64,000 nucleotides of DNA, taken from contig CAZZHR010000002.1 in the NCBI GenBank assembly GCA_964654205.1, positions 1,800 through 65,799 of the forward strand, written 5' to 3'. A program made the position numbers and the translations under genes. This document shows positions 15,858-52,023 of the stretch, piece by piece. The notes below the pieces were generated by a model. That model searched no databases and was not told the DNA's origin. It saw only the letters and a program-made list of their open reading frames with translations. Numbering within the stretch: position 1 is the stretch's first letter; each line of letters begins with the position of its first letter. The stretch is from an uncultured Candidatus Saccharibacteria bacterium. Its GTDB lineage: Bacteria; Patescibacteriota; Minisyncoccia; Phycocordibacterales; UBA2100.

Positions 15858-16133
15858 CTACTCGACGCGGTCGGGGTACATTGGACGCGCCTCGGATAGC
15901 CATACGTGGTCGTTCACGTAAATCTCTGAAAATGACCTGCCGGGCATTTCCTTTTTCACCGCATCGAGGATTTGCTGCAGATTGGGCTGCACGAGCGTGC
16001 CGAACATGACGAGCTTGCCCGGTCCGGCAAAGTTGTTCATCGTGTGATACGCCATGATTTCCTCCTTCAAGCTCGTGTTTCGTTGCCGCGCGAGAGATGC
16101 CCGCACGGTCTCTTTTGTGAGAACCTTTTGCAT
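15858..16133 (-). CDS. Hypothetical protein (91 aa)
   Basis: Balanced composition, unlike the overlapping frames; GGGAG upstream of the start; function unknown. Confidence 0.4.
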   Translation of the reverse strand: MQKVLTKETVRASLARQRNTSLKEEIMAYHTMNNFAGPGKLVMFGTLVQPNLQQILDAVKKEMPGRSFSEIYVNDHVWLSEARPMYPDRVE

Positions 16134-16202
16134 TGGCCATGCTCCCGGTTTGTCTGCTCACGTCATACCACGACACGCCAAAGAATGCGACAGCGCGGAG
16201 CG

Positions 16203-16883: not shown

Positions 16884-16920
16884 CCATCAAGGCTACGCGT
16901 ACCGCCCGTGCGCGTCAATG

Positions 16921-16954
16921 TGAGTAGCGCGGAAAAGCACGCGGCCGCCCCGGT
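16921..16954 (-). terminator. Intrinsic terminator downstream of rpoC
   Basis: GCGGCCGCCCCggtGGGGCGGCCGC, an 11-bp stem, followed by a T-rich tract on the minus strand. Confidence 0.65.
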
Positions 16955-16989
16955 GGGGCGGCCGCGGTCGAATGCGGTGAGACGTATGC

Positions 16990-20694
<3,705 letters not shown>

Positions 20695-36086: not shown

Positions 36087-36119
36087 CATATTTGTACGAG
36101 CGGCTCTAATGCTGCTATC

Positions 36120-37871: not shown

Positions 37872-37946
37872 CAACATCGACACGCCCCAGACTGGTCTCA
37901 AACACATTTCGAGCACGTTTCAAACTACTGTCTCTGTGGTCTGTAC

Positions 37947-37992
37947 GCACATACACCAACCCCCCACGACCGTTTGGAGTTGGTGTATGTGC
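37947..37992 (-). promoter_or_regulatory. Element A: ATACACCAA-N6-ACGGTCGT-N6-TTGGTGTAT, 11 nt past the stop of PaaX-like gene 1
   Basis: Same element and orientation as 38567-38612. Confidence 0.7.
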
Positions 37993-38002
37993 AGATCGAG
38001 CC

Positions 38003-38572
38003 CTAAGCCAAACCGAAGTCGCGCTTGAGAGAAGCTTCCCCCTCAAGCTCTTGCACGACCATGTATCGCATCTTGTAGCCGATACGCCACTCAGATTTCA
38101 AAAGTGCGACTAAGTCTTCACAATTGTACGGAAACACCCAGACGCTGTCCTGAAGTCGCACGAAACCAAGGTGCCTGAGCATTTCCCGGATGCGATCGCG
38201 CAGTCGACGGTTCTTCTCTGGAATGTCAAAAATAAGCACTCGCCACTTCCCGTCCCATTTTTTCTGATTCCGTGCCTGAAGGTCTGCCACACTTTGCAAC
38301 CTCTCGAGCTCGCGCGCACCGAGCGCTGTCAGGCGCAAGCCCGCTGCCTCCCGCCGAGCATACCCCTTTTCGACGAGTCGCCGGTATGTGCGCCTCATAC
38401 TCTCGCCCTGTCGCGGACCAGGGACTAGTCCGAGTCGCTTCAGACCTTGCACTGCATTTGGAGCCGCAATAGCAATCGCGAGCAGTCCGCCTAATTTGAG
38501 CGTCTCGAGTGCGACCTGTTGAATTTTCTCTTTTCTCGAACGCGATGCACCTCTCTCCTCCAATCGCCCCAT
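38003..38572 (-). CDS. PaaX-family-like transcriptional regulator, paralog 1 (190 aa)
   Basis: GLRLTALGARELERLQ...WDGKWRVLIFDIPEKNRRLRDRIREMLRHLGFVRLQDSVWVFPY parallels PaaX (GLRLTRRAESK..WDGKW) and has a Cas2/VapD-like core. Start set at MGRLEERG by alignment to paralog 2. Confidence 0.55.
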   Translation of the reverse strand: MGRLEERGASRSRKEKIQQVALETLKLGGLLAIAIAAPNAVQGLKRLGLVPGPRQGESMRRTYRRLVEKGYARREAAGLRLTALGARELERLQSVADLQARNQKKWDGKWRVLIFDIPEKNRRLRDRIREMLRHLGFVRLQDSVWVFPYNCEDLVALLKSEWRIGYKMRYMVVQELEGEASLKRDFGLA

Positions 38573-38612
38573 ACACCAAGTATATACGACCGTGGGGTAT
38601 TGGTGTATTGGG
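38567..38612 (-). promoter_or_regulatory. Element B: the same 37-bp inverted-repeat element, overlapping the start codon and -10 region of PaaX-like gene 1
   Basis: cccCATacaccaagtatatacgaccgtggggtattggtgtat; TATACT box 6 nt before the ATG suggests a leaderless transcript. Confidence 0.65.
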
Positions 38613-38746
38613 TAAGATGGAAATGCGGGGGTGTCTGCGACCGTCAGCTCAGCGGTCGATTGCGACAACGCGAAAGCCCCGGCGTATGCCGGGGCTTTGC
38701 GTTCACTTGTTTCCCTCTTTCGAGAGCTTGGAGCGGGCGGCGGCGT

Positions 38747-40069
38747 TTAGGCGCGCGAGATGACGAGACGCGGCGTGCCGTAGGCATCGCGAGTCACCTT
38801 CATCGCATCGCGGGTCATCGAATCGCTAGTCGGAAGCTCGAAGTGATTAGCCTTGACCTCCTGGGTCGTGGCTACCTCTTCTGTCTGCTCCTCTGCTCGA
38901 CTGCGCGAAATCATCGAAGTCGCGAGCGCGAGAGCGCCACCCTTGTAGTAGACGAGGAGGTAGCTACCCGCTATCGCGAGAGCGATGAGGCCAGCCCAGT
39001 ACGCGATGTTCGCGATAGGACCGAGTGTCAGACCCGTGTACGGAATCTGCGTGAGCGAGACGTACGGAGAGACTGGCGCCGCCGGAGCAACGTAGCTCTG
39101 CGTGTGACACGTGTACGTGCCGCCAGGACCGGAGACCGTGAGCGAGTAGACCGTGTTGCCGTAGGCGTAGAGCGAAGTAGAACCATTCGGAGCGACCTGA
39201 CCGACCGACGGCGTGATGTACGCGCTGGTGACAAGTCCCTGCGAACTCCACGTGAGCGTAATCATGCCTGTCGTGTAGTAGCCCTGGCCAATCGTGATGA
39301 CACAGTACGGAGCCTGGGCCTGCGGATAGACAGGGTAGCTCGGGTACACAGGGTAGCTCGGAGCGACATACTGCACTATCGGCTGCGGGTTCGCCTGCGT
39401 GACGGTCGTCACGTTGGTGTTCACGTTGGTGTTCGTGTTCACGTTGCAGCTGTTGTTGACGCAGTTGTTATTCGTCACTGGAGGCTGCGGCGCAGGCGGG
39501 ATGTATACCGGCGGCTGCGGCCTCGGAGGCTGCTGCGGCGGGTAGCTCGGGTACGAGGGGAAGCTCGGGAAGGAAGGCGTCGAGAACTTCGGAGGCACAA
39601 TGCTCATCGGGCTCGAGAACGGCTTGAAGCTGTAGCTTTCGTACTGTCCACACGAATAGCAGTCGTCGAGCGGGTAGGACCAATCATTACCCATGTCGTA
39701 GGACCAGTCACAGGTATAACAGTCGTCGAGCGGGTAGGACCAGTCACTGCCGATGTCGTACGACCAGTCGTTACCCATGTCGTACGACCAGTCGCTACCC
39801 ATGTCGTACGACCAGTCGCTACCCATGTCGTACGACCAGTCGCTACCCATGTCGTACGACCAGTCGCTTCCCATGTCGTAGGACCAATCATTACCCATGT
39901 CGTACGACCAGTCGCTGCCCATGTCGTAGGACCAATCGCTGCCCATGTCGTAGGACCAGTCTTCCCCATCGGCGTGTGCAATCGTGGCAAATGCGCCGAA
40001 AGAAAGCGCTGCCGCAATCGCGACCACTGTGAGACCAAAGAGCAGGTTTCTTATTGATGCATTTGTCAT
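38747..40069 (-). CDS. Secreted or surface protein with about 12 tandem DWSYDMGS octapeptide repeats, a Pro/Tyr-rich linker, an IPYTG motif followed by a TM segment, and a cytoplasmic tail
   Basis: Signal peptide; 24-bp in-frame tandem repeats; PSYPVYP repeats; IPYTG then LTLGPIANIAYWAGLIALAIAGSYLLVYYK. Confidence 0.7.
   Translation of the reverse strand: MTNASIRNLLFGLTVVAIAAALSFGAFATIAHADGEDWSYDMGSDWSYDMGSDWSYDMGNDWSYDMGSDWSYDMGSDWSYDMGSDWSYDMGSDWSYDMGNDWSYDIGSDWSYPLDDCYTCDWSYDMGNDWSYPLDDCYSCGQYESYSFKPFSSPMSIVPPKFSTPSFPSFPSYPSYPPQQPPRPQPPVYIPPAPQPPVTNNNCVNNSCNVNTNTNVNTNVTTVTQANPQPIVQYVAPSYPVYPSYPVYPQAQAPYCVITIGQGYYTTGMITLTWSSQGLVTSAYITPSVGQVAPNGSTSLYAYGNTVYSLTVSGPGGTYTCHTQSYVAPAAPVSPYVSLTQIPYTGLTLGPIANIAYWAGLIALAIAGSYLLVYYKGGALALATSMISRSRAEEQTEEVATTQEVKANHFELPTSDSMTRDAMKVTRDAYGTPRLVISRA
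39626..39961 (-). repeat. 24-bp in-frame tandem repeats encoding DWSYDMGS
   Basis: Period 24 nt, about 12 units with wobble variation; no spacers. Confidence 0.85.
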
Positions 40070-40130
40070 AATTGCATTCGTTTTACTTTTAAGCCGGGCT
40101 AATAAAAGCTAATAATCGCTTTACAAAGCT

Positions 40131-40158
40131 ATTATATCAGGTATTCGAGGGTTGTCAA
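40131..40158 (-). promoter_or_regulatory. Consensus sigma-70 promoter: TTGACA, 16-nt spacer, TATAAT (minus strand) for 38747-40069
   Basis: Exact hexamers in an AT-rich stretch. Confidence 0.65.
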
Positions 40159-40224
40159 GTACCTCTGAAAGAGGTGGAGAGCGGCCGCGAGACCGCTCTC
40201 CCAGTTCGTCGGACTCCCTTGGAC

Positions 40225-40635
40225 TCACGAAGACGGCTGCGGGCTGACCGGCCTGCTCTTGCAGGTGTTGTCGGGGTGGAGCCAGCCATACTGCCCCGCG
40301 TGCGGCGAGTTCGCCGGTGCCATGCAGCGGCCGTTGGGCAAAGCTGTCGGGCGCGTCGGATCCGCGACAGGCGGCGGCACGTAGGCATAGCCCGGGACAC
40401 GTGCGAGCGGCAAAGCGCAGATGCCAGGCCGGTAGGCATGCGGCCGCACCTTGTAACGCTCGTACGCGTACTTCGGCTTATAGCGCCGCGGGGGCACATA
40501 CCGCCGCGGCTTGCAGCTGCGATGATGGAAGCCGAACTCGGGGCCACAGTAACCGGCCAGAGCAACCGGAGCCGAGAACATGGTACTTCCGAGCGCCGCG
40601 GCAGCCGCCGCAGCTATCAGAGCCAACTTCTTCAT
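40225..40635 (-). CDS. Secreted basic Pro/Tyr/Arg-rich protein with conserved C-terminal Cys motif domain, paralog A
   Basis: Signal peptide MKKLALIAAAAAAALGSTMFSAPVALA; C-terminus LPNGRCMAPANSPHAGQYGWLHPDNTCKSRP is shared with 40840-41493; RBS GGAGG. Confidence 0.65.
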   Translation of the reverse strand: MKKLALIAAAAAAALGSTMFSAPVALAGYCGPEFGFHHRSCKPRRYVPPRRYKPKYAYERYKVRPHAYRPGICALPLARVPGYAYVPPPVADPTRPTALPNGRCMAPANSPHAGQYGWLHPDNTCKSRPVSPQPSS

Positions 40636-40771
40636 GGTGGAGGTCCTCCGTTGAAACGATCGCGAAGCCGGGCGATGAGGCGTCAGCCTCGATATCATGA
40701 ACACCCAGATTCTTGCCGCGCATTAATTCACTCTTGAGCGGCACTGTCAAGTAGTACGCCATATTGATTAT

Positions 40772-40812
40772 GAAGAAAAGCTTAAGGGGGGCAGAGCAAG
40801 CTCTGTCCCCCC
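40772..40812 (-). terminator. Intrinsic terminator of paralog B gene
   Basis: GGGGGGCAGAGCaaGCTCTGTCCCCCC, a 12-bp stem, followed by a T-rich tract on the minus strand. Confidence 0.8.
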
Positions 40813-40839
40813 TTTGTGAACGCAACCGGCGTTCGATCG

Positions 40840-41493
40840 TCAGTAGTAGGCGTAACGCACCGCCGCAGCAGCCGGCGGCCTTCCCTTGCAGGTGCCATCC
40901 GGATGGATGAAGCCCATCTGCCCAGCGTGCGGCGAATTCGCCGGCGCCATGCAGCGCCCGTTCGGGAGCGGTGCCGCGGCATTGACGCCGCAGCCACGCG
41001 CACCGCACGTCGGCGCCATCGCACGCGGACCGCAGTTGACGCAGTTCACACGCGGGCGCGAGTCGGAGCGGATGATGTTCGTGTTGGGCGGGTTCGGAAC
41101 GACGATATTGATCGGCCGTTCCAGAACCGCCTTCGCGATTTCCGCCGCCTGCTGACGTGCAGCTGCCGTCTCGGTCGCCGCGTTCAGCACGCGGACCGTG
41201 TCGTTGGACTGCCGCACGGCGGCGTCCGACTTCCGGATGTCGAGATCGGTGCGAACGACTTCCGTGCAGAGGTCGTTGGTGCAGCGCTCGTAGTTGGCAC
41301 TGCCGACCATCGTGTTCACCACGAAGTAGCCGCCGAGGCCGAGGCCGACGACGACAACGAGCGTGATGAGCAGGTTGAAGAGCGGCGTGCTGTCGGAATC
41401 CTGGAGCGGCACCCACCTGTCCTGGCGGGCTGAAGCTCGCTCCTCTCCAGTCTCGGTGTTGAAGTAACCGGTAGTGCGACGACGTCCGAACAT
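40840..41493 (-). CDS. Membrane-anchored protein with the same C-terminal Cys motif domain, paralog B
   Basis: Signal-anchor LFNLLITLVVVVGLGLGGYFVV; C-terminus LPNGRCMAPANSPHAGQMGFIHPDGTCKGRP; RBS AGAAGGAGAA. Confidence 0.65.
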   Translation of the reverse strand: MFGRRRTTGYFNTETGEERASARQDRWVPLQDSDSTPLFNLLITLVVVVGLGLGGYFVVNTMVGSANYERCTNDLCTEVVRTDLDIRKSDAAVRQSNDTVRVLNAATETAAARQQAAEIAKAVLERPINIVVPNPPNTNIIRSDSRPRVNCVNCGPRAMAPTCGARGCGVNAAAPLPNGRCMAPANSPHAGQMGFIHPDGTCKGRPPAAAAVRYAYY

Positions 41494-41590
41494 GGCGTTC
41501 TCCTTCTGAGTTGCCTAGTTGCTATGGGTTGCGTTTGGAACTCGAGGCAGAAATCGTGGCATTGCTGCCTCGAATTCCACTCGTAGTATC

Positions 41591-41618
41591 ATTATAACAA
41601 ATACAATACGTTTGTCAA
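41591..41618 (-). promoter_or_regulatory. Consensus sigma-70 promoter: TTGACA, 16-nt spacer, TATAAT (minus strand), with a roughly 100-nt structured leader
   Basis: Leader contains the hairpin GGAATTCGAGGCAG...CTGCCTCGAGTTCC (14 bp, one mismatch). Confidence 0.65.
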
Positions 41619-41642
41619 GTATAAAATTTGGCTCAATAGAGC

Positions 41643-41676
41643 CAAAAGACTGATGCCCCGCATTTTCACGCGGGGC
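41643..41676 (-). terminator. Intrinsic terminator of the 41707-42384 gene
   Basis: GCCCCGCattttcacGCGGGGC followed by a T-run on the minus strand. Confidence 0.65.
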
Positions 41677-41706
41677 ACCTTTCATGAGCTTATCCGACTC
41701 CGGAAC

Positions 41707-42384
41707 CTACGTCGGCTGAGGCACGAGCGCCGCAGGCGGAGCACCAGCTGCCGCCTGAGCGTTGACCCGCAGCTGGTCTGCTGCGAGGCTAATCAGACGC
41801 GCCTCGTCGATGGCGGGAATGTCCGGCTCGACGTATCCATCGGGAGCCACGTCGAGAAACACTGTCTCTTGCAGCGGACCGATTCGCCGGAGCCCCCGCT
41901 CGTAGAACGGAAGCAGCGGTCCGAGGCCGTAGCTCTGCTGGGCGGCTGGGTCCATTTGCACGTTGATGAGCCCTGCATCGGCGATTCGCTGAAGCAGAAA
42001 CACGTCCACGTACGCATACGCCGTCAGCATGATCAGGATTTGCAGCGCGTTTGAGGTTTGCAGCACAATCCAGATATCAGCGCCGCCGAAGCTCATCTGG
42101 GCGATGACCGCAAGCGACGTGAGCGAGAGGCTCCACAGCGCGACCGTCGACGTCTTCTTGTCGATGGAATTGAGCGTGGGACTCGGCTTCACGAAGATTG
42201 CGAGCGTGTTGGAGACGAGGTAGGTCACCCAGACCGTCGTGCCGAAGTTGATCAGCACGGAGGCCCAGTACACGACGCTTTGCGCCTGCGCGAATGCCGG
42301 AATCGCAAAGTACGAGAGCGGCGCCCACAGGGCGACGAGCAAACCGGACACAATCGAGACGATTTTGACAATAACGCTTGTCAT
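41707..42384 (-). CDS. Polytopic membrane protein (4 TM) with soluble C-terminal tail
   Basis: Hydrophobic helices; no recognisable domain; TTGACA-17-TATACA promoter at 42453-42481. Confidence 0.55.
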   Translation of the reverse strand: MTSVIVKIVSIVSGLLVALWAPLSYFAIPAFAQAQSVVYWASVLINFGTTVWVTYLVSNTLAIFVKPSPTLNSIDKKTSTVALWSLSLTSLAVIAQMSFGGADIWIVLQTSNALQILIMLTAYAYVDVFLLQRIADAGLINVQMDPAAQQSYGLGPLLPFYERGLRRIGPLQETVFLDVAPDGYVEPDIPAIDEARLISLAADQLRVNAQAAAGAPPAALVPQPT

Positions 42385-42477
42385 CGAGTTCTCCTGCCGA
42401 GTCTTGTGTTGCGTTGGATTCGGAGCCCAGCATCATGCCGGGAACTCTTCTATGTATACATCAAAACGCGCGCCCTG

Positions 42478-42744
42478 TCAAGTGTGGTCTGTTCCTCTCC
42501 TCTCCGTCTTTTCGATGTCTTGAATTATCTTCAAACCTTTCTCCTGAATGTCGGCTATTGCCGCTGCTTCAGTATTCTGCTTCTGAAGGGCAGCAAAGTA
42601 CACATTGTTGAGTATTCTGCCCTGAAGCTCATCTGGAAGCTTTTCGAATTCTTCTGCCACAAGCTTCTGAGCAGCCGCCTGATCACCCTTTGATAAAAGT
42701 TCGTGGAGTCTGTCGTATAGCTGTCCGAGATTGTCTTCGGTCAT
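42478..42744 (-). CDS. Small helical cytoplasmic protein (88 aa)
   Basis: Low-GC ORF with balanced composition, immediately downstream of the 697-aa gene. Confidence 0.45.
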   Translation of the reverse strand: MTEDNLGQLYDRLHELLSKGDQAAAQKLVAEEFEKLPDELQGRILNNVYFAALQKQNTEAAAIADIQEKGLKIIQDIEKTERRGTDHT

Positions 42745-42754
42745 GCAGAGGGTG

Positions 42755-44848
42755 TTAGTTGTTAAATGCGCCGCTCGCCATAAGTTTCTTTCGCTCCTGC
42801 TTCAATTTTTCTGAGAAGACTGCACTCAAGATTCCGGCAAACCAACCAAACAGCGACTGCCTCTTTTCGGCGTCAGACTCACGGTCTGCGAAAAATGCAT
42901 CAGCTCGTTCGTCTGGCGTTGCGTCCGCCCATTTTTTTCCCATCTTATTTTCCAGTGACACTTGAAAAGTCTCATCCTTGGCTTTTAATTTCTTAATATC
43001 CTCATCGAGTGCCGTATTTAGGTTCTTTGTATTCGTTTCGAACTCACCGAACGTGGCTTCCCCGCGCTCGCCCAGAGCTGGTATGGGCTTCTTACCATAA
43101 GCTTCCTGGACGATACGGGCTCGGAATACGCTGTCATTGGAGAGTGTGCCTGCGAGAACTTTTCCTATTTCAATCCTATTGTGCGCCAAGGAGTTGATTG
43201 CATTGTTCGAGCGAATCGTGCTGTCCCGCAACAGTACGCGCCTGAAAAAGCCGGGTTTGCGAATGTTTCGCGCTGTTCTTGCGTCAAGCATGGACCAATT
43301 GAGGTCTTCCGGCCCGACTCCTATGAGACCCGTGAAGTGCCTGGTGCGTTCCTTGAGTTTCGCATAGCTTGCGTTCATTCGAATATCGAGGTTCGATCTG
43401 TGCGAGAGTACAATTGCCCTCACGTCGTCGGAGCTGGCAAGCGCAAATGTGTACGACAGCGCAGTTTTCATAGCCTCGAGTCTACGAGTTGGATTCAGGT
43501 TTGTCGCGAGAACAGCAAAAGCTTTGTCGTTGGCAATCATGAACTCGACGTCAGCCGCCGTGAGTCCATCGCGCACCTCATCAAGCAGGCGCATGCGATG
43601 ATCGAACTCTTTGAGGAGCTCCTGTAGCTCCGCATAGTCGTCCTCTTCCATCGTAGACGCGTCTTGCATAGAAGCCATGTGCCGCACACTGAGCCCTTCT
43701 GGGCCGTGCGCTTTGACGTATTCGCCGAAAAGCTCCTGCTTCTTCTTGTCCTTCAGGATGACATCCATTGTCGAACCCTGATTCGTATATGTTATCGATT
43801 GCGCCCGCACGAGCGGCAAGGCTGAATATCTGCGTTTTACGTGCTTCGGGACGACGCCGACCACCCTTCCCTTTTTCGGCAATGGTTGGGGCATAGCGCC
43901 ACGACCACTCTTCTTTCCGCTCCCATTCTCTGAATCGTCGCCCCCATCACCGCCGTCACCGCCGCTTGGCGGTTCCGGACCGTCCGACTTCTCCGTCCCA
44001 TTCCTGGACTCGTTTTTGGCTTTCCGGTCACGCAGCATCTGTATTTGTTCCGAAGTGTACAGTTTCCCAGGTGTATCTGGATGGTAATAGTAGCGCCCGC
44101 CCCAAACGCCCGCGAGATGCTCAAATTTGGTAAGGTCGAGATCCTTATTTCTCTCCGCGAGCTTCTTTAAAAGCTCCTCAACCTCCTTTTGCTTCGCCGG
44201 ATCGTTGGCGTTGTCTGCGAAGCCACCGTCGTTGGTAGCGTTACCGTCTAACTCCGAGGCCGATTCTTTTCCTTTGCTGCTCGCCTCATACACTTGAAGC
44301 GCTTCACTGATGCCTTTTATTTCGATAGGTTTCGTTGCTGCACCGACGTAATCCTCCAGTCGCTTGAAATGTTTATCACCGATTTTTGCCTTTACCGCCT
44401 CGAGTCGCGCATGAATATTTTTCTTTGCCTCTTCGAGCTGTTCTGGTTTAGCATATTCGCTGCTCGCGCTAACCTCCTCGGTCACAGCATTAACTCCCTC
44501 CAGCTCAGCAATCTCTGCGTTGGACACACGAACAAGTTCCATCTGAGGTACGTCATCTCTCAATGCATCCCCCATCTCTGTCCTTATAATCTGATCCTCT
44601 TCCGCTTCGTTCGGCTTCCGTTTGGTACCATCCATCTCAACGATAAGAAATCCGCTCGCCCCCGCCTCGTACTTCAATTTAGACGTTCGCGCTTCAGCAG
44701 AAGCTTCATGCCGCCGTGAATCTGGTGGCGCATCCGTCTTGGGCTCAAACGAGGACGAACTTTGGTCTGGGAGACTAATGATGCTGTCGTCTTCGACAGG
44801 TTTTTTACGACGCTCGAGTGCGCGCTTCGCCCGCTCTTCAAATGCCAT
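42755..44848 (-). CDS. Large hypothetical cytoplasmic protein (697 aa); low GC; no recognisable domain
   Basis: Long intact ORF at about 45-50% GC in a 60% GC genome; acidic/basic low-complexity linkers (GGDGGDGGDD). Confidence 0.6.
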   Translation of the reverse strand: MAFEERAKRALERRKKPVEDDSIISLPDQSSSSFEPKTDAPPDSRRHEASAEARTSKLKYEAGASGFLIVEMDGTKRKPNEAEEDQIIRTEMGDALRDDVPQMELVRVSNAEIAELEGVNAVTEEVSASSEYAKPEQLEEAKKNIHARLEAVKAKIGDKHFKRLEDYVGAATKPIEIKGISEALQVYEASSKGKESASELDGNATNDGGFADNANDPAKQKEVEELLKKLAERNKDLDLTKFEHLAGVWGGRYYYHPDTPGKLYTSEQIQMLRDRKAKNESRNGTEKSDGPEPPSGGDGGDGGDDSENGSGKKSGRGAMPQPLPKKGRVVGVVPKHVKRRYSALPLVRAQSITYTNQGSTMDVILKDKKKQELFGEYVKAHGPEGLSVRHMASMQDASTMEEDDYAELQELLKEFDHRMRLLDEVRDGLTAADVEFMIANDKAFAVLATNLNPTRRLEAMKTALSYTFALASSDDVRAIVLSHRSNLDIRMNASYAKLKERTRHFTGLIGVGPEDLNWSMLDARTARNIRKPGFFRRVLLRDSTIRSNNAINSLAHNRIEIGKVLAGTLSNDSVFRARIVQEAYGKKPIPALGERGEATFGEFETNTKNLNTALDEDIKKLKAKDETFQVSLENKMGKKWADATPDERADAFFADRESDAEKRQSLFGWFAGILSAVFSEKLKQERKKLMASGAFNN

Positions 44849-44896
44849 GCGTGAATTTTATCACGATGTAACGCCATTATTTCAATGTACGTGCAT

Positions 44897-44927
44897 AGAA
44901 AAAGGGCGAGCCGAAGCTCGCCCTTTC
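44897..44927 (-). terminator. Intrinsic terminator
   Basis: aaaaaGGGCGAGCcgaaGCTCGCCCtttcc. Confidence 0.8.
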
Positions 44928-44949
44928 CGTCGCACTAGGGCGACAAAGA

Positions 44950-45774
44950 TCAGGTCTTGGCACCGATGGAGATGCCTTTCCCGTTGTAAGCCGGGTTGCC
45001 CTTGGCAGCTTCCGCAGCAGCGGCGGCGGCGATCTTCTGTCGCTCCTCCATGTCTTCCATGAAGAGGCGTTCGAAGAACTTGTCGTAGCCTGTCGCGTCC
45101 TGTTCGAGGAGCTGTGTCTTGCCGCCGATCAGGCGGCACGACTTGCCGTTGACATCGCGCACGATGACGACGGCGCCCTCAGGGATACGCCAGAAGTCGA
45201 AGTTGACCGGGGAGTACGGAAGTCCACGGATGTTCTTGCCGTGGACACTCCCGATCTTCTCGGCCGCAGCCGTGCCGAAATCCGCTTTCTCTTCGCGGCC
45301 TTCGGCGATCTTGAACGCGCCGGACTTCTTGTCGAAGTTGTACGAGCCGTGAGGCTTCACTTCGCCCTTGCTCGCGATGTCCATGTAGTCGCCCATCATG
45401 CCCTGCGGACCGAACTGGAAGCCAGTCCGAATGAGCACGATCCAGTCGTTGCCATCCTTGTGGGAGGCGAGGACCTTGCGGGTCTTGCCGTCGCCGATGT
45501 CCTGATCGATCGCGCTCGCGCGGATGATCTTGTTGCGCTGGTCGAACAGCGGGCGATCGGTCAGCAGTGCCGGGACGACTGATGCGCCCTTGCTGAGCTT
45601 CCCGTTGCGTCCGATGCCGCCGACCACCACGGACGGCAGCGCGATTTTCGCGACGGAATCCGGCAACAGGTCAGACCTGATACCGGTGGTCAGACCCTGA
45701 CCGCGGGGCATGAAGAAGTACAAGTTGGCGTCCTTCGCGGTGCCAACCTGGTGTTCAGCGGACTGACTGCGCAT
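44950..45774 (-). CDS. Hypothetical protein (274 aa)
   Basis: Intact ORF with high GC3; flanked by intrinsic terminators; no signal peptide; no assignable domain. Confidence 0.55.
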   Translation of the reverse strand: MRSQSAEHQVGTAKDANLYFFMPRGQGLTTGIRSDLLPDSVAKIALPSVVVGGIGRNGKLSKGASVVPALLTDRPLFDQRNKIIRASAIDQDIGDGKTRKVLASHKDGNDWIVLIRTGFQFGPQGMMGDYMDIASKGEVKPHGSYNFDKKSGAFKIAEGREEKADFGTAAAEKIGSVHGKNIRGLPYSPVNFDFWRIPEGAVVIVRDVNGKSCRLIGGKTQLLEQDATGYDKFFERLFMEDMEERQKIAAAAAAEAAKGNPAYNGKGISIGAKT

Positions 45775-45895
45775 TTGGTGTGCTCCTTAAGCTGCGCTTC
45801 TGGTGAGATCTCCGAGGAGACCAGAGCCCTATGCTCCACCCTTGATGGTATCATATTATCTAGAAATGTCAATATATGGCTCAAGTACCTGTCCA

Positions 45896-45931
45896 ATATA
45901 AAAGACAAAGCGCCGCGGTTGCCCGCGGCGC
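45896..45931 (-). terminator. Intrinsic terminator
   Basis: GCGCCGCGGttgcCCGCGGCGC followed by TTTGTCTTTTAT on the minus strand. Confidence 0.8.
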
Positions 45932-45958
45932 TGAAAGATAGCTTGCCTTGCGAATAGT

Positions 45959-46546
45959 TCACCTGTTGCGCGGCAGCCTCTGCTCCGTACGTTCACCTCT
46001 CGGTGCCGACTTCAGCATCTCCATCAGGAGCCCGTTTACGAAGTAGTTCGTGATGAGGATGGCGAAGACATTGACGCCGACGAGATGCCACTCGACTACG
46101 CCATAGCGTATCGGGCTGCCTCCCGGCTCGTTGCGATAGTACGCCCATGCCACGAGCCATATCACGACTGCGAGAATCGTCCCTATGTGCGGCAGCTGTG
46201 CAGTACGCACCTGCCTGCGCGCTTGTGGCGCACTTATCGAGCCGCGCCCCTCCATCTGTCCCATAATCTCGCGCGCTTCGAGAAGCACGTAGAGGAATAG
46301 GAACGCGACCCAGTAGAAGCCGATCCAGAGCTTCGTTACCGTCGAGAACCCACTCAAAGAAAGGAGCGGGATGCCGAAGGTAATCAGAACCATGAGAATC
46401 GGCGCATTCCAGCGCTCCGCCCAGATGAACGGCGGATGTCCAGCGGGGTCACGCATAAGCCCTACCGCAATTTTCCAGTTGGCCCACTTGTCGGGATTTC
46501 GCGGGACTGTTGGTTCCTGACCAATCTCGGTCATATGTCGCTCCAT
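45959..46546 (-). CDS. Membrane protein (4 TM), unknown function
   Basis: Hydrophobic helices ILMVLITFGIPLL, LWIGFYWVAFLFLYVLL, ILAVVIWLVAWAYY, VFAILITNYFVNGLL. Confidence 0.55.
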   Translation of the reverse strand: MERHMTEIGQEPTVPRNPDKWANWKIAVGLMRDPAGHPPFIWAERWNAPILMVLITFGIPLLSLSGFSTVTKLWIGFYWVAFLFLYVLLEAREIMGQMEGRGSISAPQARRQVRTAQLPHIGTILAVVIWLVAWAYYRNEPGGSPIRYGVVEWHLVGVNVFAILITNYFVNGLLMEMLKSAPRGERTEQRLPRNR

Positions 46547-46610
46547 TATTCGCTCCCCCTCGGGGAGCTTCTAGCGCACGTTGTGCGCTTTTATGAGGCG
46601 CGTGTCAAGC

Positions 46611-47306
46611 CTAGTGCGCGAGGATGCGGCGGATTTGTTCGAGGTTGGAGGCGACGGAATTGTCGGGCTTGTTGAGTCGATGAATATCCACCGCGCGGGC
46701 GACTTCTACAGGCCGCGCCACATCGACTACGCGTCCGACGTCGACTGCGTGCCCGATAGTGACCGCTGATGCGATGTTGCCCGCGCTGCCTATGCTGACC
46801 GCACGACCAATGTCGACCGCATGAGCGATGTCGACGGCGTGCGCAATAGTCACGGCATTGCCGATGACCACGGGGTAACCGAGACTCACCGGACGGCCTA
46901 CGATGACGGGGTACCCAATCGTGACCGGACGTCCGACTGTAACAGGACGTCCGACCGTCACCGGCCTCCCGACGTTCACGGGACGACCGACATTGACCGG
47001 ACGAGCCACCGAAACAGGCCTCGCGACGGTAGCGGGACGCGCGACAGATACCGGATGAGCCACGCGGACAGGTTCGGCGACGATGGCACTGCGAGTGACG
47101 ACTATCTCATCGCATGCGCATTCGTCGGCAAAGACCCACGCGAGCGGCGTGAGCAGCGCACCGATGAGAATAGCGATGGCGTACTTCTGCTCCATAGTGA
47201 GATGCACGGGACGGACGTTCACGATTCGGGCGCGTGCTGCGGCAACCGTGTCGCGCACGAGCGACAGGAGCCTCACGGGTACGAATTTCTTTGCAAGTGT
47301 TTCCAT
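46611..47306 (-). CDS. N-terminally anchored protein made of about 25 tandem hexapeptide repeats (xRPVxV / xHAVDI)
   Basis: TM anchor MEQKYAIAILIGALLTPLAWVFA; 18-bp in-frame tandem repeats; start ATG 4 nt after the sortase stop. Confidence 0.6.
   Translation of the reverse strand: METLAKKFVPVRLLSLVRDTVAAARARIVNVRPVHLTMEQKYAIAILIGALLTPLAWVFADECACDEIVVTRSAIVAEPVRVAHPVSVARPATVARPVSVARPVNVGRPVNVGRPVTVGRPVTVGRPVTIGYPVIVGRPVSLGYPVVIGNAVTIAHAVDIAHAVDIGRAVSIGSAGNIASAVTIGHAVDVGRVVDVARPVEVARAVDIHRLNKPDNSVASNLEQIRRILAH
46665..47096 (-). repeat. 18-bp in-frame tandem repeats (hexapeptide)
   Basis: Period 18 nt, coding, no spacers. Confidence 0.8.
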
Positions 47307-47310
47307 ACGT

Positions 47311-47976
47311 TTAGTACACCCCGACAAACGACGCCTCGACGACAAAACGAGCGTCTTTGGATGTGAGCGTGTCGCAGGTGACGAGCGTGATACGAGTGCC
47401 GAGTTCCTTGCGCATGTCGATGCGCGTGTCGGATGCATCGGCCTTCTTTACCGACGTGACCGAATAGAGGTAGTTCTTGCCAGCGGCCTGGAGCGTGATG
47501 GTGTCGCCCGCCTCGAGTTCTTTCACGCGATTAAAAGCCTTGTACATCGGGTTGCGCACGACCGGAAGATTGGACGAGTGCGCAAAGAGAAGGACGTTGC
47601 CACCTTTCTCGCCGAGCTTAGCGGAATCGATGTAGCGCGCAGGACCATTTTTGAGAAGCTCGTCGAGCTCAGCGATGTCGCGCGTATCGGGATTCTGAAT
47701 CGCGAGATCGAGTTCAATGTCGGCGATGATGATTCTTTCTGGCTCTACGACGACTTCGTTGCCGAGCTCCGGCAGGTGCGACAACGCGACCGTATTGCTC
47801 GAGAGCGTCTCGGCGACAGTTTCGTAATCTCTGTCAGTACCATCGATGTAGTCGGGCACGAAGCCGACGGAACTAGCCGCCGAGAGCGAGAGGAAGAAAA
47901 TCACCACCGCGGCACTCACAAAGACGCTCTTGGGAGCGCGATTCTGTGGCTCTACTGAGCGGTGTAGCTGACTCAT
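47311..47976 (-). CDS. Sortase-family transpeptidase
   Basis: N-terminal TM anchor; His in LLFAHSS; TLxTC active site RITLVTCDT; Arg in ARFVVEASF. Confidence 0.75.
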   Translation of the reverse strand: MSQLHRSVEPQNRAPKSVFVSAAVVIFFLSLSAASSVGFVPDYIDGTDRDYETVAETLSSNTVALSHLPELGNEVVVEPERIIIADIELDLAIQNPDTRDIAELDELLKNGPARYIDSAKLGEKGGNVLLFAHSSNLPVVRNPMYKAFNRVKELEAGDTITLQAAGKNYLYSVTSVKKADASDTRIDMRKELGTRITLVTCDTLTSKDARFVVEASFVGVY

Positions 47977-48005
47977 ATATTTATATTGTACCTCTGTAGG
48001 GTTGA

Positions 48006-48029
48006 TTTGTCAATAGTATACTTGACAAA
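48006..48029. promoter_or_regulatory. Divergent promoter region with a palindromic pair of TTGACA boxes (tttgtcaatagtatacttgacaaa)
   Basis: Minus strand: TTGACA-17-TACAAT, with the ATG 8 nt later (leaderless sortase mRNA). Plus strand: TTGACA-16-TACTCT before the CARDB gene. Confidence 0.5.
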
Positions 48030-48056
48030 ACGTAGGAACACGGTACTCTTGCCCGC

Positions 48057-49031
48057 ATGTCAGACCCGCACCAACCGCCCGCGCAAAAAACGCACAAACC
48101 CTCCGGTACGACGATGGTCGCCAACGTTCTCGCCATCGTAGGCTCCATCATTCTCGTAATCATCATTATTTGGGGACTCGTCCACCTCCTTTCTCTCTCG
48201 GGCGGATTCTTCTCTTCCCTCTTCGGCGGCAAAGACCGTGACATCGTAGTGGACGCGCCGTCTGAAGTTACTTCCGGGGAAGCGTTCAAGATTTCCTGGA
48301 TGCATGAGACGGACGAGGGCGGCATGTACGCGCTCCTCTATCCGTGCACCGAGGGCTTGCGCTTCTCCATCCTCGCGCCGAACGATGATGACATTACGAT
48401 CCCCTGTGGCGCGGCATTTGCCATCGGAACCGCGACGACCAGCGCGAGCCTCACGCCCGTGCTGATTGGCGCCTCGACGGTGAGCACGCCGCTGAGTGTG
48501 CTCTTCATCCCGAGCTCTACATCGAGCGCGCCCGTAGAAGGCACCGTGACACTCTCCGTCGAGACTGTGTCTACACCGACGCAGCCTGAACCAGAAGAGC
48601 CCGCTCCAACGCCGAAACCGACTACCCCTGTTGCGCCGAGCACCCCTGGCGACCTCGCGGTTACCATCACGTCGGTCTCTGTAGACCAGTTCGGCAACGG
48701 CACCGTCGTCTTCAACATATCCAACATCGGCTCCGGCGCGACCGGTGGGTACTACTTCACCGCACAGCTCCCGACTCGCCAGCCATACACATACATCTCT
48801 CCGACCCAGGCATCGCTTTCCCCGGGCGCGTACATCGTAAACACGCTTCGCTTCACGCAGGCGATGGCCGGCAATGTAACTGTGGTCGCCGACCCGGCCA
48901 ATGTGGTGCGCGAGAGCAACGAGAACAACAACACCGCCGTGCAATACATCTCCGGCCAATACCCGTACCAGTACACATACCCGCAACAGCCATCGAGCTA
49001 CAACATCTACAACTATCCGTACACCTACTAA
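48057..49031 (+). CDS. Cell-surface protein: N-terminal signal anchor, Thr/Pro-rich linker, CARDB-like domain, Tyr-rich C-terminus
   Basis: DLAVTITSVSVDQFGNGTVVFNISNIGSGATGGYYFTAQLP...VTVVADPANVVRESNENNNT matches the CARDB pattern; the ending QYPYQYTYPQQPSSYNIYNYPYTY echoes the YP repeats of 38747-40069. Confidence 0.65.
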   Translation: MSDPHQPPAQKTHKPSGTTMVANVLAIVGSIILVIIIIWGLVHLLSLSGGFFSSLFGGKDRDIVVDAPSEVTSGEAFKISWMHETDEGGMYALLYPCTEGLRFSILAPNDDDITIPCGAAFAIGTATTSASLTPVLIGASTVSTPLSVLFIPSSTSSAPVEGTVTLSVETVSTPTQPEPEEPAPTPKPTTPVAPSTPGDLAVTITSVSVDQFGNGTVVFNISNIGSGATGGYYFTAQLPTRQPYTYISPTQASLSPGAYIVNTLRFTQAMAGNVTVVADPANVVRESNENNNTAVQYISGQYPYQYTYPQQPSSYNIYNYPYTY

Positions 49032-49130
49032 GGGTCAGCGCGGATGAAATCAAAAGGGCGGCCGAATGGCTACCCTTTTGATTGCACACCTTGCCACAAT
49101 ATGCGCGCTTTGTGTCGGTGCTATCTGTGC

Positions 49131-49159
49131 GTTATAGCGAACGTATAGCATTTACATCA
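49131..49159 (-). promoter_or_regulatory. Element C, downstream copy: TATAGCGAA-N3-ATAGCAT, overlapping the stop of PaaX-like gene 2
   Basis: gttatagcgaacgtatagcatttaca; same orientation as 49736-49764. Confidence 0.65.
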
Positions 49160-49729
49160 TTTCCCTTTCAGACCGAAATGTTTGCGTAAATCCTCATCAC
49201 CCTCTATCTCGTCAACAATCATATAGCGGACTGCCCTTCCGATGTGTAGATCAGCCTTCACGAGTGAAACAAAATCTTCAACATCGTAGGGGAAAACCCA
49301 TACGCTATCCTGCAACATAAGAAAGCCGATGTGTCGGAGAGTCCTACGGATCTTATCCCTATCTGCTTTCCGATGTTCGGGGATATCAAAGATGAGCACA
49401 CGCCACCTGCCGTCCCAACGACGCGGCACGTCCCCTCGCATCAATGCCTCATGTAGATCCAGCTCTTTCCGGCCTCGGTCAGTCAATCGAAGCCCTTTCT
49501 CCGTGCTACGAATGTGTCCAGAGGCGATTAATCGCTTTCGCGCTCGATTAATCGTTGAGGAATCTTGCGGAGACCTCTCAAGGAGTCCCAATTTGTACAA
49601 ACTTTGGACCGCATTCGGTGCTGCCAAAACAAATCCTGTGATTGCAGCCACTTTGACCGCCGCGAGTAATGCGAACTTGATATCTCTTTTCCGCTTACGG
49701 ATCCTCCCTCGTATTTCTACCTCGCCCAT
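49157..49729 (-). CDS. PaaX-family-like transcriptional regulator, paralog 2 (190 aa)
   Basis: APNAVQ..GLRLTDRGRKELDLHE..RWDGRWRVLIFDIPEHRKADRDKIRRTLRHIGFLMLQDSVWVFPY; collinear with 38003-38572. Confidence 0.55.
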   Translation of the reverse strand: MGEVEIRGRIRKRKRDIKFALLAAVKVAAITGFVLAAPNAVQSLYKLGLLERSPQDSSTINRARKRLIASGHIRSTEKGLRLTDRGRKELDLHEALMRGDVPRRWDGRWRVLIFDIPEHRKADRDKIRRTLRHIGFLMLQDSVWVFPYDVEDFVSLVKADLHIGRAVRYMIVDEIEGDEDLRKHFGLKGK

Positions 49730-49735
49730 ACTATT

Positions 49736-49764
49736 TATTCGCTATAGCGAAATGATAGCATGAC
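49736..49764 (-). promoter_or_regulatory. Element C, upstream copy with a perfect 14-bp palindrome ttcgctatagcgaa, 8 nt upstream of the paralog 2 start
   Basis: tattcgctatagcgaaatgatagcatgac. Confidence 0.65.
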
Positions 49765-49826
49765 AGTCTGAAACATACGTCTAACGTATTGTCTACGTAT
49801 GTCGACGGAGCAAAACAGGGCGCACG

Positions 49827-49895
49827 TTAGATGTCGAGTGTCGCTTCTTTAGCGTGGCTCTGAATGAATTCCGCCAGAAGGCGGATTACGCGCAC
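49827..49895 (-). pseudogene. In-frame tandem duplicate of the gyrB C-terminal tail (…AEFIQSHAKEATLDI*), recoded at synonymous sites
   Basis: Reading through the gyrB TGA gives VRVIRLLAEFIQSHAKEATLDI then TAA at 49827-49829. It encodes the same 13 aa as the genuine gyrB end; about 28/42 nt are identical, with differences confined to wobble positions. Confidence 0.7.
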
Positions 49896-51953: not shown

Positions 51954-52023
51954 AATTTAGTGCTTTCAGTGTATCAAAAAACAAGCCCTCTGGCTAGGCC
52001 TTTTCCCGCCTGCGAGTGCGCAT

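Follow-up and report, generated by a model that had tools for sequence, protein, structure and literature searches.

A probably vertically inherited gyrB–thrS interval with a sortase and its probable surface substrate in Kaiserbacteria and other Paceibacterota

Gene content of the interval

The window, i.e., the whole 64-kb stretch of DNA that was analyzed, contains thrS and gyrB separated by 11.7 kb (Table 1). As stated in the initial annotation, 13 non-housekeeping genes were found between them, with cell-surface proteins among their products. The assignment to the cell envelope was borne out as well: besides a sortase and a CARDB protein, the genes encode proteins with signal peptides or transmembrane (TM) segments, and the repeat protein carries a sorting signal. 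Some details had to be corrected. Two polytopic membrane proteins were found instead of three, the thirteenth gene being a soluble 88-aa open reading frame (ORF); the GC content of the window was 57%, not 60%; and the 697-aa and 274-aa proteins, labeled orphans, are rare, yet both have homologs.

Table 1 Features of the thrS–gyrB interval (window positions)
Feature	Position	Strand	Remarks
thrS (flank)	36120-37871	+	Pfam
paaX1 downstream palindrome, 34 bp	37953-37986	.	ACACCAA-N20-TTGGTGT; 17 bp past paaX1 stop
paaX1 (PaaX-like gene 1), 189 aa	38003-38572	-	PF20803, E=1.7e-21; codon-usage z = -4.3
paaX1 upstream palindrome copy	38573-38606	.	abuts ATG
440-aa surface protein	38747-40069	-
Putative sortase target peptide of 440-aa protein			SLTQIPYTGLTLG; predicted mature end Thr345
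Repeat protein promoter	40131-40158	-	exact, TTGACA-N16-(TG)TATAAT
Small secreted basic Cys-motif protein	40225-40704	-	likely start M24, giving 136 aa with signal peptide
217-aa signal-anchored Cys-motif protein	40840-41493	-
217-aa Cys-motif gene promoter	41618-41591		exact
Polytopic membrane protein, 225 aa	41707-42384	-
88-aa acidic helical protein	42478-42744	-	10 nt 3' of 697-aa gene
697-aa cytoplasmic protein	42755-44848	-
274-aa gene terminator	44901-44926
274-aa strongly conserved protein	44950-45774	-	GC3 0.83; first gene of conserved trio
274-aa gene promoter	45872-45845		10/12
4-TM protein, 195 aa	45959-46546	-	four TM segments
Hexapeptide-repeat protein, 231 aa	46611-47306	-	type II membrane protein
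Divergent sortase, 221 aa	47311-47976	-	N-terminal TM; PF04203, 63.5 bits vs cutoff 26.6
Sortase promoter	47985-48013	-	TTGACA-N17-TACAAT (11/12); in 80-bp divergent region shared with CARDB gene
CARDB-domain protein, 324 aa	48057-49031	+	membrane-anchored; Tyr/Pro-rich C-terminus; PF07705, 35 bits vs cutoff 22.7
Segment of 744 bp with paaX2 and bracketing sites	49083-49826	-	missing at precisely the same spot in L081
paaX2 bracketing site TGCGTTATAGCGAA	49128-49141
paaX2 (PaaX-like gene 2), PaaX_M-like	49157-49729	-	codon-usage z = -6.9
paaX2 bracketing site TTCGCTATAGCGAA	49738-49751
Second, non-gyrB copy of last 13 gyrB codons + stop	49827-49868	-
Spacer hairpin between tail copies	49870-49885
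gyrB (flank)	49896-51953	-	Pfam

The comparison set comprised 80 gyrB-anchored loci (L numbers), in which the proteins of the window were searched for by tblastn in ~20 kb around gyrB per relative. The gyrB genes of the window and L081 were 94% identical. The sortase carries the catalytic residues H133, C201 (TLVTC), and R210, a triad that was invariant in 25/25 locus sortases. The hexapeptide gene starts 4 nt past the sortase stop and is translationally coupled to the sortase gene; its product has an extracytoplasmic region of [PA]V[ST]VGR repeats, with an LbH-type match below the cutoff. The CARDB gene is transcribed divergently from the sortase gene, and in roughly half of the 80 loci a CARDB homolog adjoins gyrB (tblastn; blastp was used on the ORF sets of 39 loci). 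Identities to L081 were 82% for the sortase, 77% for the hexapeptide protein, and 76% for the CARDB protein. The 195-aa membrane protein has homologs in L081 (58%), L083, and L005, and a weak homolog of the 225-aa one was detected at the equivalent position in L088. The two Cys-motif proteins, of 159 and 217 aa (76% and 46% identical to their L081 counterparts, respectively), are alike only in a 31-aa C-terminal motif (LPNGRCMAPANSPHAGQxGxxHPDxTCKxRP, 84% identity).

The 274-, 697-, and 88-aa proteins form a cytoplasmic trio, of which the first is 90% identical to its L081 counterpart. The 697-aa protein (63 representative clusters) consists of an N-terminal domain (residues 1–199), a low-complexity linker, and a C-terminal domain (~340–697), which was modeled confidently as all-alpha (pLDDT 92.7) and had no structural neighbor in structure searches. 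Between the window and L081, identity falls from 77% at the N-terminus to 33% in the C-terminal domain, and is likewise 33% for the downstream 88-aa protein. In pairwise comparisons, the identity of the C-terminal domain correlated with that of the 88-aa protein (rho 0.56, p = 0.002), and neither correlated with that of the neighboring 274-aa protein. A conserved N-terminus with joint divergence of the C-terminal domain and a small downstream gene is also seen in polymorphic toxin–immunity loci (CdiA-CT/CdiI, Rhs, LXG). In contrast to these, all 697-aa C-terminal domains are homologous and belong to one all-alpha family, and no secretion signal, toxin/immunity family, or secretion system was found in the locus. 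The trio had no evident link to surface display.

Promoters, terminators, and border regions

Exact TTGACA-N16-TATAAT promoters were found 5' of the repeat protein gene and the 217-aa Cys-motif gene. Sites scoring ≥11/12 numbered three in the whole window, all within the interval (P ~0.006). An own strong promoter had been assigned to most genes; exact or near-exact ones do exist for some, but "most" is an overstatement, since the matches of the other genes are weaker. Strong terminators were confirmed, with seven hairpins of dG −24 to −34 kcal/mol (z −2.2 to −6.1).

PaaX is the phenylacetyl-CoA-responsive repressor of the paa operon (TIGR02277; Pfam PaaX, PaaX_M, PaaX_C). The two PaaX-like proteins of the window are 47% identical, and such genes recur at the borders in several relatives. 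The paaX1 product has a PaaX-type winged-helix region and a central Cas2-like PaaX_M domain, and, as with PaaX, cognate palindromic DNA sites lie by the gene. The proteins differ from PaaX in being only ~190 aa long, in lacking the PaaX_C ligand domain, and in scoring 38–43 bits (paaX1, 38) against the TIGR02277 cutoff of 264; no paa genes are nearby. Each gene is also bracketed by its own palindrome pair, one copy lying at the start codon and the other just past the stop, and the palindrome sequence co-varies with its gene. The paaX1 palindrome matched at two places in the 64 kb, against 0 expected, and its downstream copy doubles as the thrS/paaX1 hairpin (dG −33.9, z −6.1). The PaaX-like genes were often missing from related loci, including those of the close relatives L081, L083, and L001–L003. 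They are self-contained cassettes. The initial annotation had placed the locus under dedicated regulators, a claim not supported in view of these absences and of the palindromes, which bracket their own genes only and had no further copy in any promoter of the interval. The proteins would be short PaaX-type repressors, each acting on its own palindrome pair and presumably autoregulatory; control of the locus could not be demonstrated.

At the other flank, the reported duplication of the gyrB tail was verified: the codons FIQSHAKEATLDI and stop at 49937–49896 recur at 49868–49827 (30/42 nt and 13/13 aa identical). The two copies are adjacent, and the island does not lie between them. As the scar is shared with L081, it is old, and it represents a past recombination event rather than the edge of an imported island.

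Conservation in related genomes

The order gyrB–CARDB–sortase–...–repeat protein–thrS–dnaE was found in many Kaiserbacteria, in an Adlerbacterium (L040), and in other Paceibacterota, and gyrB adjoins thrS directly in Zambryski-/Nomurabacteria. The gyrB–thrS interval was complete in 47 related genomes of Paceibacterota. Of these, CARDB/sortase and the motif protein were both present in 22, the sortase only in one, the motif protein only in none, and neither in 24 (Fisher p = 1.6e-12). The interval measured 4.6–9.4 kb in carriers of the module versus 0.02–2 kb in non-carriers. The full gene order, including the 274-aa, 697-aa, 88-aa, membrane, and Cys-motif genes, was kept by L081, L083, and L087, which are the closest relatives.

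The candidate sortase substrate

From the N- to the C-terminus, the 440-aa protein comprises a signal peptide, 12 DWSYDMG(S/N) repeats, Cys pairs, P-rich and N/T-rich linkers, an Ig-like domain, the sequence SLTQIPYTG (nt 39032-39046), a TM helix, and a 94-aa cytoplasmic tail ending in PRLVISRA. The octapeptide repeat reported earlier was thus recovered, with a 24-nt period in 9.5 copies and 12 DWSY units. Orthologs have the same architecture and different repeat units. In related loci, (I/V)PYTG was present in 30/31 motifs (extended consensus YVSLSQIPYTGLDLGP, then TM), followed by 47–369 residues (median ~115) with a conserved C-terminal motif.

The 440-aa protein is probably a sortase substrate. 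Gram-positive housekeeping sortase and LPXTG-type loci (classes A and E) share with this one a membrane-anchored sortase with a His-Cys-Arg triad and TLxTC motif, a neighboring exported protein in which an xPxTG motif is accompanied by a hydrophobic helix and basic residues, and passenger domains that are repeat-rich and Ig-like. They differ in that the sortase studied here reached the NCBIfam cutoff of no sortase class (36 bits for class E and 35 for class C vs 160), the (I/V)PYTG motif is embedded in a longer stretch of conserved residues, the cytoplasmic tail of the substrate is long and conserved, unlike the short basic tail of a classical sorting signal, the position between gyrB and thrS is fixed, and the partner is a CARDB protein. 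Sortases are common in CPR bacteria (PMC6744442).

The (I/V)PYTG protein could instead be a bitopic receptor or anchor, its conserved juxtamembrane segment and tail serving in signaling or docking, in which case the sortase would have other substrates or be a protease. The long tail would suit such a role, with its conserved [MT]P[RK]IVI.R[ANS] end in Kaiserbacteria and a larger conserved C-terminal segment after the TM helix in L027, L039, L059, and L063, as would motif conservation well past five residues (SLSQIPYTGLDLGP) and an NCBIfam scan (E ≤ 0.1) in which no sorting-signal or cell-wall-anchor family matched the repeat protein. We consider this unlikely given the near-perfect co-occurrence with the sortase, the motif protein never being found alone. 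The motif also conforms to the general xPxTG pattern, with a TM helix and then K/R residues after it, and this protein is the sole ORF with an xPxTG-plus-TM signal in the window.

Inheritance of the locus

In the initial annotation, the interval was read as a horizontally assembled accessory island between two housekeeping genes, run by the two terminal PaaX-like regulators. Its view of a surface locus stands, parts of which differ among genomes, and PaaX-like genes do recur at both borders in several relatives; horizontal assembly and dedicated regulation were not supported. Codon usage spoke for import in part, being atypical in paaX1, paaX2, and the genes for the 697-aa and 88-aa proteins (z −4.2 to −6.9), but GC3 and codon usage were core-like in 9/13 genes, and the 697-aa gene had a low GC3 in every relative, which is a property of the gene itself. 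An island would also be in keeping with a gyrB–thrS junction that is empty in roughly half of the species related to this one, the gyrB-tail duplicate as a mark of past recombination, the paaX2 segment as an indel relative to L081, the PaaX-like genes at both borders in other genomes too, and a window thrS of a different type than that of near relatives. Against this, the core is kept in 22 species (22/47 intervals) and gene order and content in the three closest relatives, so that conserved order with core-like composition was largely what was found; the gyrB scar is old, the interval promoters have no PaaX operators, and neither an integrase or tRNA target nor a match to phage or defence families was found. 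The island reading is largely refuted by synteny and appears quite improbable. From the synteny, the core-like codon usage, and the family-wide low GC3, it follows that the locus is vertically inherited and fast-diverging.

A degraded integrative element, prophage, or defence island is scarcely credible: the gyrB-tail duplicate looks att-like, the PaaX-like proteins have Cas2-like domains, and a weak Y1_Tnp match adjoins thrS in L087, but the tail copies lie side by side and do not flank the island, the interval has no recombinase, PHROG and PADLOC gave no match besides the Cas2-like domain, no viral relative of paaX2 was found, and the 697-aa C-terminal domain had no viral structural match.

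Proposed function

The interval is likely the local version of a cell-envelope locus kept between gyrB and thrS by Kaiserbacteria and several other Paceibacterota, with a sortase and a likely anchored surface protein at its centre. The conserved core consists of the membrane-anchored CARDB protein, the divergently transcribed, unclassified sortase with its intact His-Cys-Arg triad, and a Sec-exported protein that combines an Ig-like domain and (I/V)PYTG plus a TM helix with acidic/aromatic tandem repeats peculiar to each species. Between the core parts lie lineage-specific, fast-evolving genes, each with its own sigma-70-type promoter and hairpin terminator: the hexapeptide beta-helix membrane protein, the polytopic membrane proteins, the Cys-motif secreted proteins, and the cytoplasmic trio. 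Local recombination has probably acted by joint swapping of the 697-aa C-terminal domain and the 88-aa gene, by replacement of the gyrB 3'-end allele, leaving the 42-nt scar, and by gain or loss of the PaaX-like cassette adjoining gyrB. Only around one in two of the relatives sampled has the module, which may reflect one ancient insertion into the gyrB–thrS junction or repeated loss. After export of the proteins, the sortase would cut IPYTG in the repeat protein between its T and G residues, and the TM helix would be left in the membrane together with the cytoplasmic tail, which is conserved. The sortase would then attach the repeat protein to an acceptor, either the cell wall or another one at the surface, and the variable repeats would thereby be displayed on the cell.

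Gene content and expression signals

The window has a GC content of 57% and originates from a Kaiserbacteria-like Paceibacterota (CPR) organism; its gyrB shares 79–91% identity with that of Kaiserbacteria and Parcubacteria metagenome-assembled genomes (MAGs). Between thrS and gyrB lie 13 genes, 12 of which are on the minus strand. This gene set, described in the initial annotation as a surface locus without housekeeping roles, was borne out with minor corrections, and its surface-locus reading was supported. The interval encodes two polytopic membrane proteins. The part common to the two Cys-motif proteins is limited to a 31-residue C-terminal motif. The hexapeptide-repeat protein starts 4 nt past the sortase stop codon, and the 18-nt periodicity of its gene is real; it scored 27.3 bits against Pfam LbH_EIF2B (cutoff 54), and NCBIfam matched LpxD/LpxA-type stretches (E 1e-9 to 1e-5) far under the cutoffs. 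No Rfam family was found within positions 36000–52500. Antisense ORFs in the repeat regions (38519–40057+, 47083–47958+) were rejected as genes, since their GC distribution over the codon positions does not fit a coding frame and the conserved frames are the sense frames.

Promoters of the form TTGACA-N16-TATAAT were found as two exact copies (TG upstream in both), one 11/12 match, and one 10/12 match, and the top three promoter matches of the entire 64-kb window all lie inside the island. Seven intergenic hairpins were detected (−24 to −34 kcal/mol, z −2.2 to −6.1). The earlier picture of strong, mostly monocistronic expression is sound, but for roughly half of the genes it goes too far.

Features of the thrS–gyrB interval and its borders (window positions)
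Feature	Position	Strand	Remarks
thrS	36120–37871	+	
paaX1 palindrome, distal copy	37953–37986		ACACCAA-N20-TTGGTGT, 17 bp past the paaX1 stop; chance expectation zero matches
paaX1 (PaaX-like, thrS side)	38003–38572	−	PaaX_M (Cas2-like) domain, Pfam-confirmed
paaX1 palindrome, proximal copy	38573–38606		Same palindrome, abuts the paaX1 ATG
440-aa repeat protein	38747–40069	−	
Cys-motif protein	40225–40704	−	
Cys-motif protein	40840–41493	−	
88-aa protein	42478–42744	−	
697-aa protein	42755–44848	−	
274-aa protein	44950–45774	−	
Sortase domain	47311–47976		Pfam-confirmed
CARDB domain (PF07705)	48057–49031		Pfam, 35 bits, gathering cutoff 22.7
paaX2 palindrome copy	49128–49141		TGCGTTATAGCGAA
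paaX2 (PaaX-like, gyrB side)	49157–49729	−	PaaX_M (Cas2-like) domain, Pfam-confirmed
paaX2 palindrome copy	49738–49751		TTCGCTATAGCGAA
22-aa ORF with the second gyrB-tail copy	49827–49895		13 gyrB codons and stop intact
gyrB	49896–51953	−	

Conservation and descent of the locus

The window proteins were mapped onto 80 gyrB-anchored loci from species-representative genomes. The order pheT–gyrB–CARDB(−)–sortase(+)–...–440-aa homologue–thrS–dnaE was recurrent in Kaiserbacteria. This pheT-to-dnaE order was also present in MAGs labelled Adlerbacteria (L040) and Paceibacterota, and on a Taylorbacteria contig (L037) the gyrB–CARDB–sortase portion was visible before the contig end. In Zambryskibacteria and Nomurabacteria, thrS immediately adjoins gyrB. 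A sortase was found together with a protein having (I/V)PYTG and then a hydrophobic helix in 22 of the 47 complete intervals; one interval had the sortase alone, none the motif alone, and 24 neither (Fisher's exact test, p = 1.6e-12). Interval length was 4.6–9.4 kb with the module versus 22–2052 bp without it. The locus is a variant of a putative sortase–substrate system at a fixed chromosomal address. In the papers searched, no description of the gyrB–thrS locus was found; those on CPR/Parcubacteria sortases made general statements only.

The middle of the interval is variable: each relative has between one and six small proteins of the signal-peptide or membrane type, mostly without sequence kinship between species. 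In L002, three paralogous small secreted proteins (15657–17741) with the C-terminal two-Cys motif Y[IV]AGAP..[AE]C.ARGG...N.G..C.GY[QR] have the same position as the Cys-motif pair of the window, to which they are analogous and non-homologous. In L087, a gene that separates thrS from the PYTG protein (17766–18536) gave a weak match to Y1_Tnp (IS200-type transposase).

The middle genes of the window had no match among those 80 loci. The 697-aa and 274-aa proteins had been called orphans, a status that does not hold: large protein databases contained five relatives of the 274-aa protein and one close relative of the 697-aa protein, and the contigs carrying them had the gene order of the window. 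In the nearest genome (L081, gyrB 94% identical), the order was pheT, gyrB, CARDB, sortase, hexapeptide-repeat, 4-TM, 274-aa, 697-aa-like, 88-aa-like, membrane protein, and both Cys-motif proteins. It was kept from pheT through the 88-aa-like gene in L083 (gyrB 83%), and also in L087 (gyrB 80%), where the PYTG protein, thrS, and dnaE followed and a PaaX_M gene was located after gyrB. As the relatives of the middle genes keep the window order, the gyrB–thrS block has been passed down at this site in a subclade of Kaiserbacteria.

Composition was compared with that of 18 housekeeping genes of the window (GC3 and codon usage). Nine island genes were in the core range; the four outliers were both PaaX-like genes and the 697-aa and 88-aa genes. 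GC3 was low (0.43–0.60) in 697-aa homologues and very high (0.74–0.86) in 274-aa homologues, in every relative; these extremes are gene-specific traits and no sign of recent import. Horizontal assembly, as proposed initially, was unsupported: the gene order is kept in L081, L083, and L087, the core is present at this site in 22 species, and composition is not atypical across the block, being so in just four genes, with one outlier class gene-specific in all relatives. No integrase, tRNA target, or flanking direct repeats were found for the interval, the sole repeat being the adjacent gyrB-tail pair.

The adjoining thrS of the window encodes all of the enzyme (583 aa), N-terminal editing region included, and several of the closest gyrB relatives (loci compared: L002, L007, L016, L087) have a form of ~410–440 aa without the N-terminus. 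The window thrS is 64–70% identical to that of more distant Paceibacterota (L040, L050, L072) versus 45–51% to that of the closest gyrB relatives, which suggests that thrS was replaced in place.

The sortase and its candidate substrate

The Sortase domain (PF04203) was detected with 63.5 bits (gathering cutoff 26.6, E = 2e-17), and catalytic H133, C201 (TLVTC; TLxTC type), and R210 were invariant in 25/25 locus sortases. No class cutoff (A–F, GN) was reached (class E 36, class C 35, and class D 26 bits, versus 160–165), and the generic sortase model TIGR01076 scored 33.5 bits (cutoff 39.35). The enzyme is remote from all solved sortases, with the best PDB sequence match at E = 3e-4.

The 440-aa protein combines a signal peptide with 12 DWSYDMG(S/N) units (24-nt period). 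It is the sole ORF in the window with a sorting-type signal, that is, an xPxTG-type motif (IPYTG, residues 342–346) followed by a hydrophobic helix (TM 355–373) and basic residues (YYKGG...SRSR). At E ≤ 0.1, no NCBIfam family for a sorting signal or anchor domain matched this protein. Across the family, the architecture comprises a signal peptide, tandem repeats, Cys pairs, an N/T-rich stretch, an Ig-like domain, the motif block [YV]SL[ST]Q[IV]PYTG[LF]D[LF]GP, a TM helix, and a cytoplasmic tail. The short tandem repeats are acidic/aromatic, and the unit is species-specific: DWSYDMGS in the window, YDSEYVPS in L007, YDYSTP in L018, YYDTSAYN in L020, and GGDVSFGG in L015. PKD and DUF11 domains were found in more distant members.

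In the simplest mechanism, the sortase would cut at T|G of IPYTG, and the repeat protein would then be covalently displayed. Classical sortase substrates have a short tail after the TM helix, whereas in the (I/V)PYTG family 47–369 residues (median about 115) follow the motif, and the tail end is conserved as [MT]P[RK]IVI.R[ANS]. This long conserved tail keeps alive the reading of the (I/V)PYTG protein as a bitopic receptor.

PaaX-like border genes

The proteins encoded by paaX1 and paaX2 (189–190 aa) are 47% identical. PaaX_M was matched with 76.6 and 77.6 bits, respectively (cutoff 24); the PaaX equivalog TIGR02277 scored 38 and 43 bits for the two proteins (cutoff 264), and Pfam PaaX_C gave no match in either. 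The architecture is a PaaX-type winged helix plus a Cas2-like domain, with 29.2 (paaX1) and 23.7 (paaX2) bits against Cas2 TIGR01573 (cutoff 24.5) and 22.8 and 19.5 bits against Pfam Cas2 (cutoff 23.8); neither cas genes nor a repeat array were found in the interval. The N-terminal hydrophobic stretch, which we take to be the first helix of the winged-helix domain, was rejected as a TM helix because the alignment of the NCBIfam PaaX model begins downstream of it, at residues 51–58.

Each of the two genes lies between two copies of its own palindrome. The same layout was found in relatives' PaaX-like genes, the palindrome sequence differing and co-varying with the gene: palindromes of ~30–36 bp, located at the start codon and just past the stop (window; L005, L013, L019, L044, L065, L090–L169). 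For 71 metagenomic loci, the upstream and downstream flanks of each gene were compared for common exact words: the longest had a median length of 13 nt, and one of ≥12 nt was present in 38/71 loci versus 16/419 mismatched pairs. No copies of the paaX1 and paaX2 palindromes were found in other promoters of the window, and the proposal that these genes are dedicated regulators of the locus was accordingly unsupported. The PaaX-like proteins most likely act by autorepression via two putative operators.

This family of short PaaX-like genes has at least 588 metagenomic relatives; viral contigs contained no relative of paaX2. The genes cluster by position into a gyrB-side clade (window paaX2, L090, L005, L013, L087), a thrS-side clade (L091, L114, L138), and a pheT–gyrB clade (L019, L127); from this we conclude that they recur at the borders and are frequently lost. 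In the comparison with L081, paaX2 stands out as a 744-bp indel (49083–49826) located exactly between the stop of the second gyrB tail and the shared terminator.

The duplicated gyrB tail

The second gyrB-tail copy is located 27 nt 3' of the gyrB stop codon, and the spacer contains a hairpin. The duplicate was found in no locus other than L081, which lacks paaX2; import of the tail with paaX2 was rejected on this ground. Copy 2 is similar to the single tail in L083; it probably represents the ancestral tail, which was displaced upon replacement of the 3' end of gyrB with another allele. Copies 1 and 2 of the window have 12 differences, all synonymous. Copy 2 of the window and that of L081 (6559–6630) have five nucleotide differences, again all synonymous, among them an AGC/TCT difference at Ser; P is about 2e-4 if they are counted as five substitutions and 0.008 if counted as three events. 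An in-frame start precedes copy 2 in both genomes, giving ORFs of 22 aa (GTG, window) and 24 aa (ATG overlapping the gyrB stop, L081) that end as the GyrB C-terminus. Copy 2 may be translated as a micro-ORF, or repeated gene conversion may have produced it. Read-through of the gyrB stop codon into copy 2 was rejected, as the L081 spacer differs by 2 nt and the frames are mismatched there. In four other loci, 7-nt tandem repeats directly follow the gyrB stop at the place of the duplicate: TTTCTAG x12 (L014), AGCTTTC x5 (L011), and CAGGTTT (L008, L010).

The cytoplasmic trio

The 697-, 274-, and 88-aa proteins had no TM helix and no N-terminal hydrophobic (signal-like) segment. Scans of the middle genes against Pfam, NCBIfam, PHROGs, and PADLOC were empty, and neither the 697-aa nor the 274-aa profile matched any PDB sequence. 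The order [263–300 aa]–[669–1062 aa]–[86–96 aa, 1–15 nt gap] was found in 7/7 related loci with visible flanks. An exhaustive profile search with the 697-aa protein gave 63 representative clusters, nearly all aligned over the C-terminal ~360 residues; a few weak matches were restricted to N-terminal or linker segments.

The identity of the 274-aa protein tracks that of gyrB (about 91% to L081, 76% to L083). Compared with L081, the 697-aa protein drops from 77% identity (residues 1–199) to 33% (residues 220–695), and the 88-aa protein is 33% identical; the window C-terminal domain and 88-aa protein are nearer to L085/L086 (42–48%) than to the nearest genome. Pairwise comparison (28 pairs) showed a correlation between identities of the C-terminal domain and those of the 88-aa protein (rho 0.56, p = 0.002), whereas identities of the 274-aa protein correlated with neither. 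This pattern suggests that the C-terminal domain and the 88-aa protein are exchanged, or co-diversify, as one unit.

Residues 330–697 of the 697-aa protein were modelled with AlphaFold2 (34-sequence alignment) as a confident all-alpha domain (pLDDT 92.7, pTM 0.87). Foldseek gave no meaningful neighbour of this model in the PDB (best E about 1) or in BFVD (best E 0.17). The AlphaFold2 model of the 274-aa protein (6-sequence alignment) was unusable (pLDDT 38). As in polymorphic toxin–immunity pairs, a variable C-terminal domain is followed by a co-varying small downstream gene; unlike in those, the trio has no secretion/trafficking domain and no recognisable toxin fold. We regard the following twofold reading as improbable: that the trio is an undescribed module, in which a new all-alpha domain and its acidic partner co-diversify by cassette exchange, much like an effector–immunity or lock-and-key pair, and that the palindrome-bracketed PaaX-like genes form a class of self-contained cassettes, regulatory or selfish, that has not been described before. 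If the reading of the trio is true, the pair could set strain or host specificity in episymbiont-type bacteria.

Significance

Two side products that may be of wider use were obtained: a confidently modelled all-alpha domain without a structural neighbour (PDB, BFVD), co-diversifying with a small partner, and the large family of short PaaX-like genes (at least 588 metagenomic relatives), each between two copies of its own palindrome. CPR/Patescibacteria are thought to be host-attached, and their attachment machinery is mostly unknown. What appeared to be a one-off island is a defined locus with a fixed chromosomal address, comparable across genomes. In Kaiserbacteria-type organisms, it is a concrete target for peptide-cleavage assays (e.g., VSLTQIPYTGLTLGP), proteomics, and cryo-ET labelling, and it offers a candidate enzyme–substrate pair, a divergent sortase and an (I/V)PYTG surface protein whose repeats differ per species.
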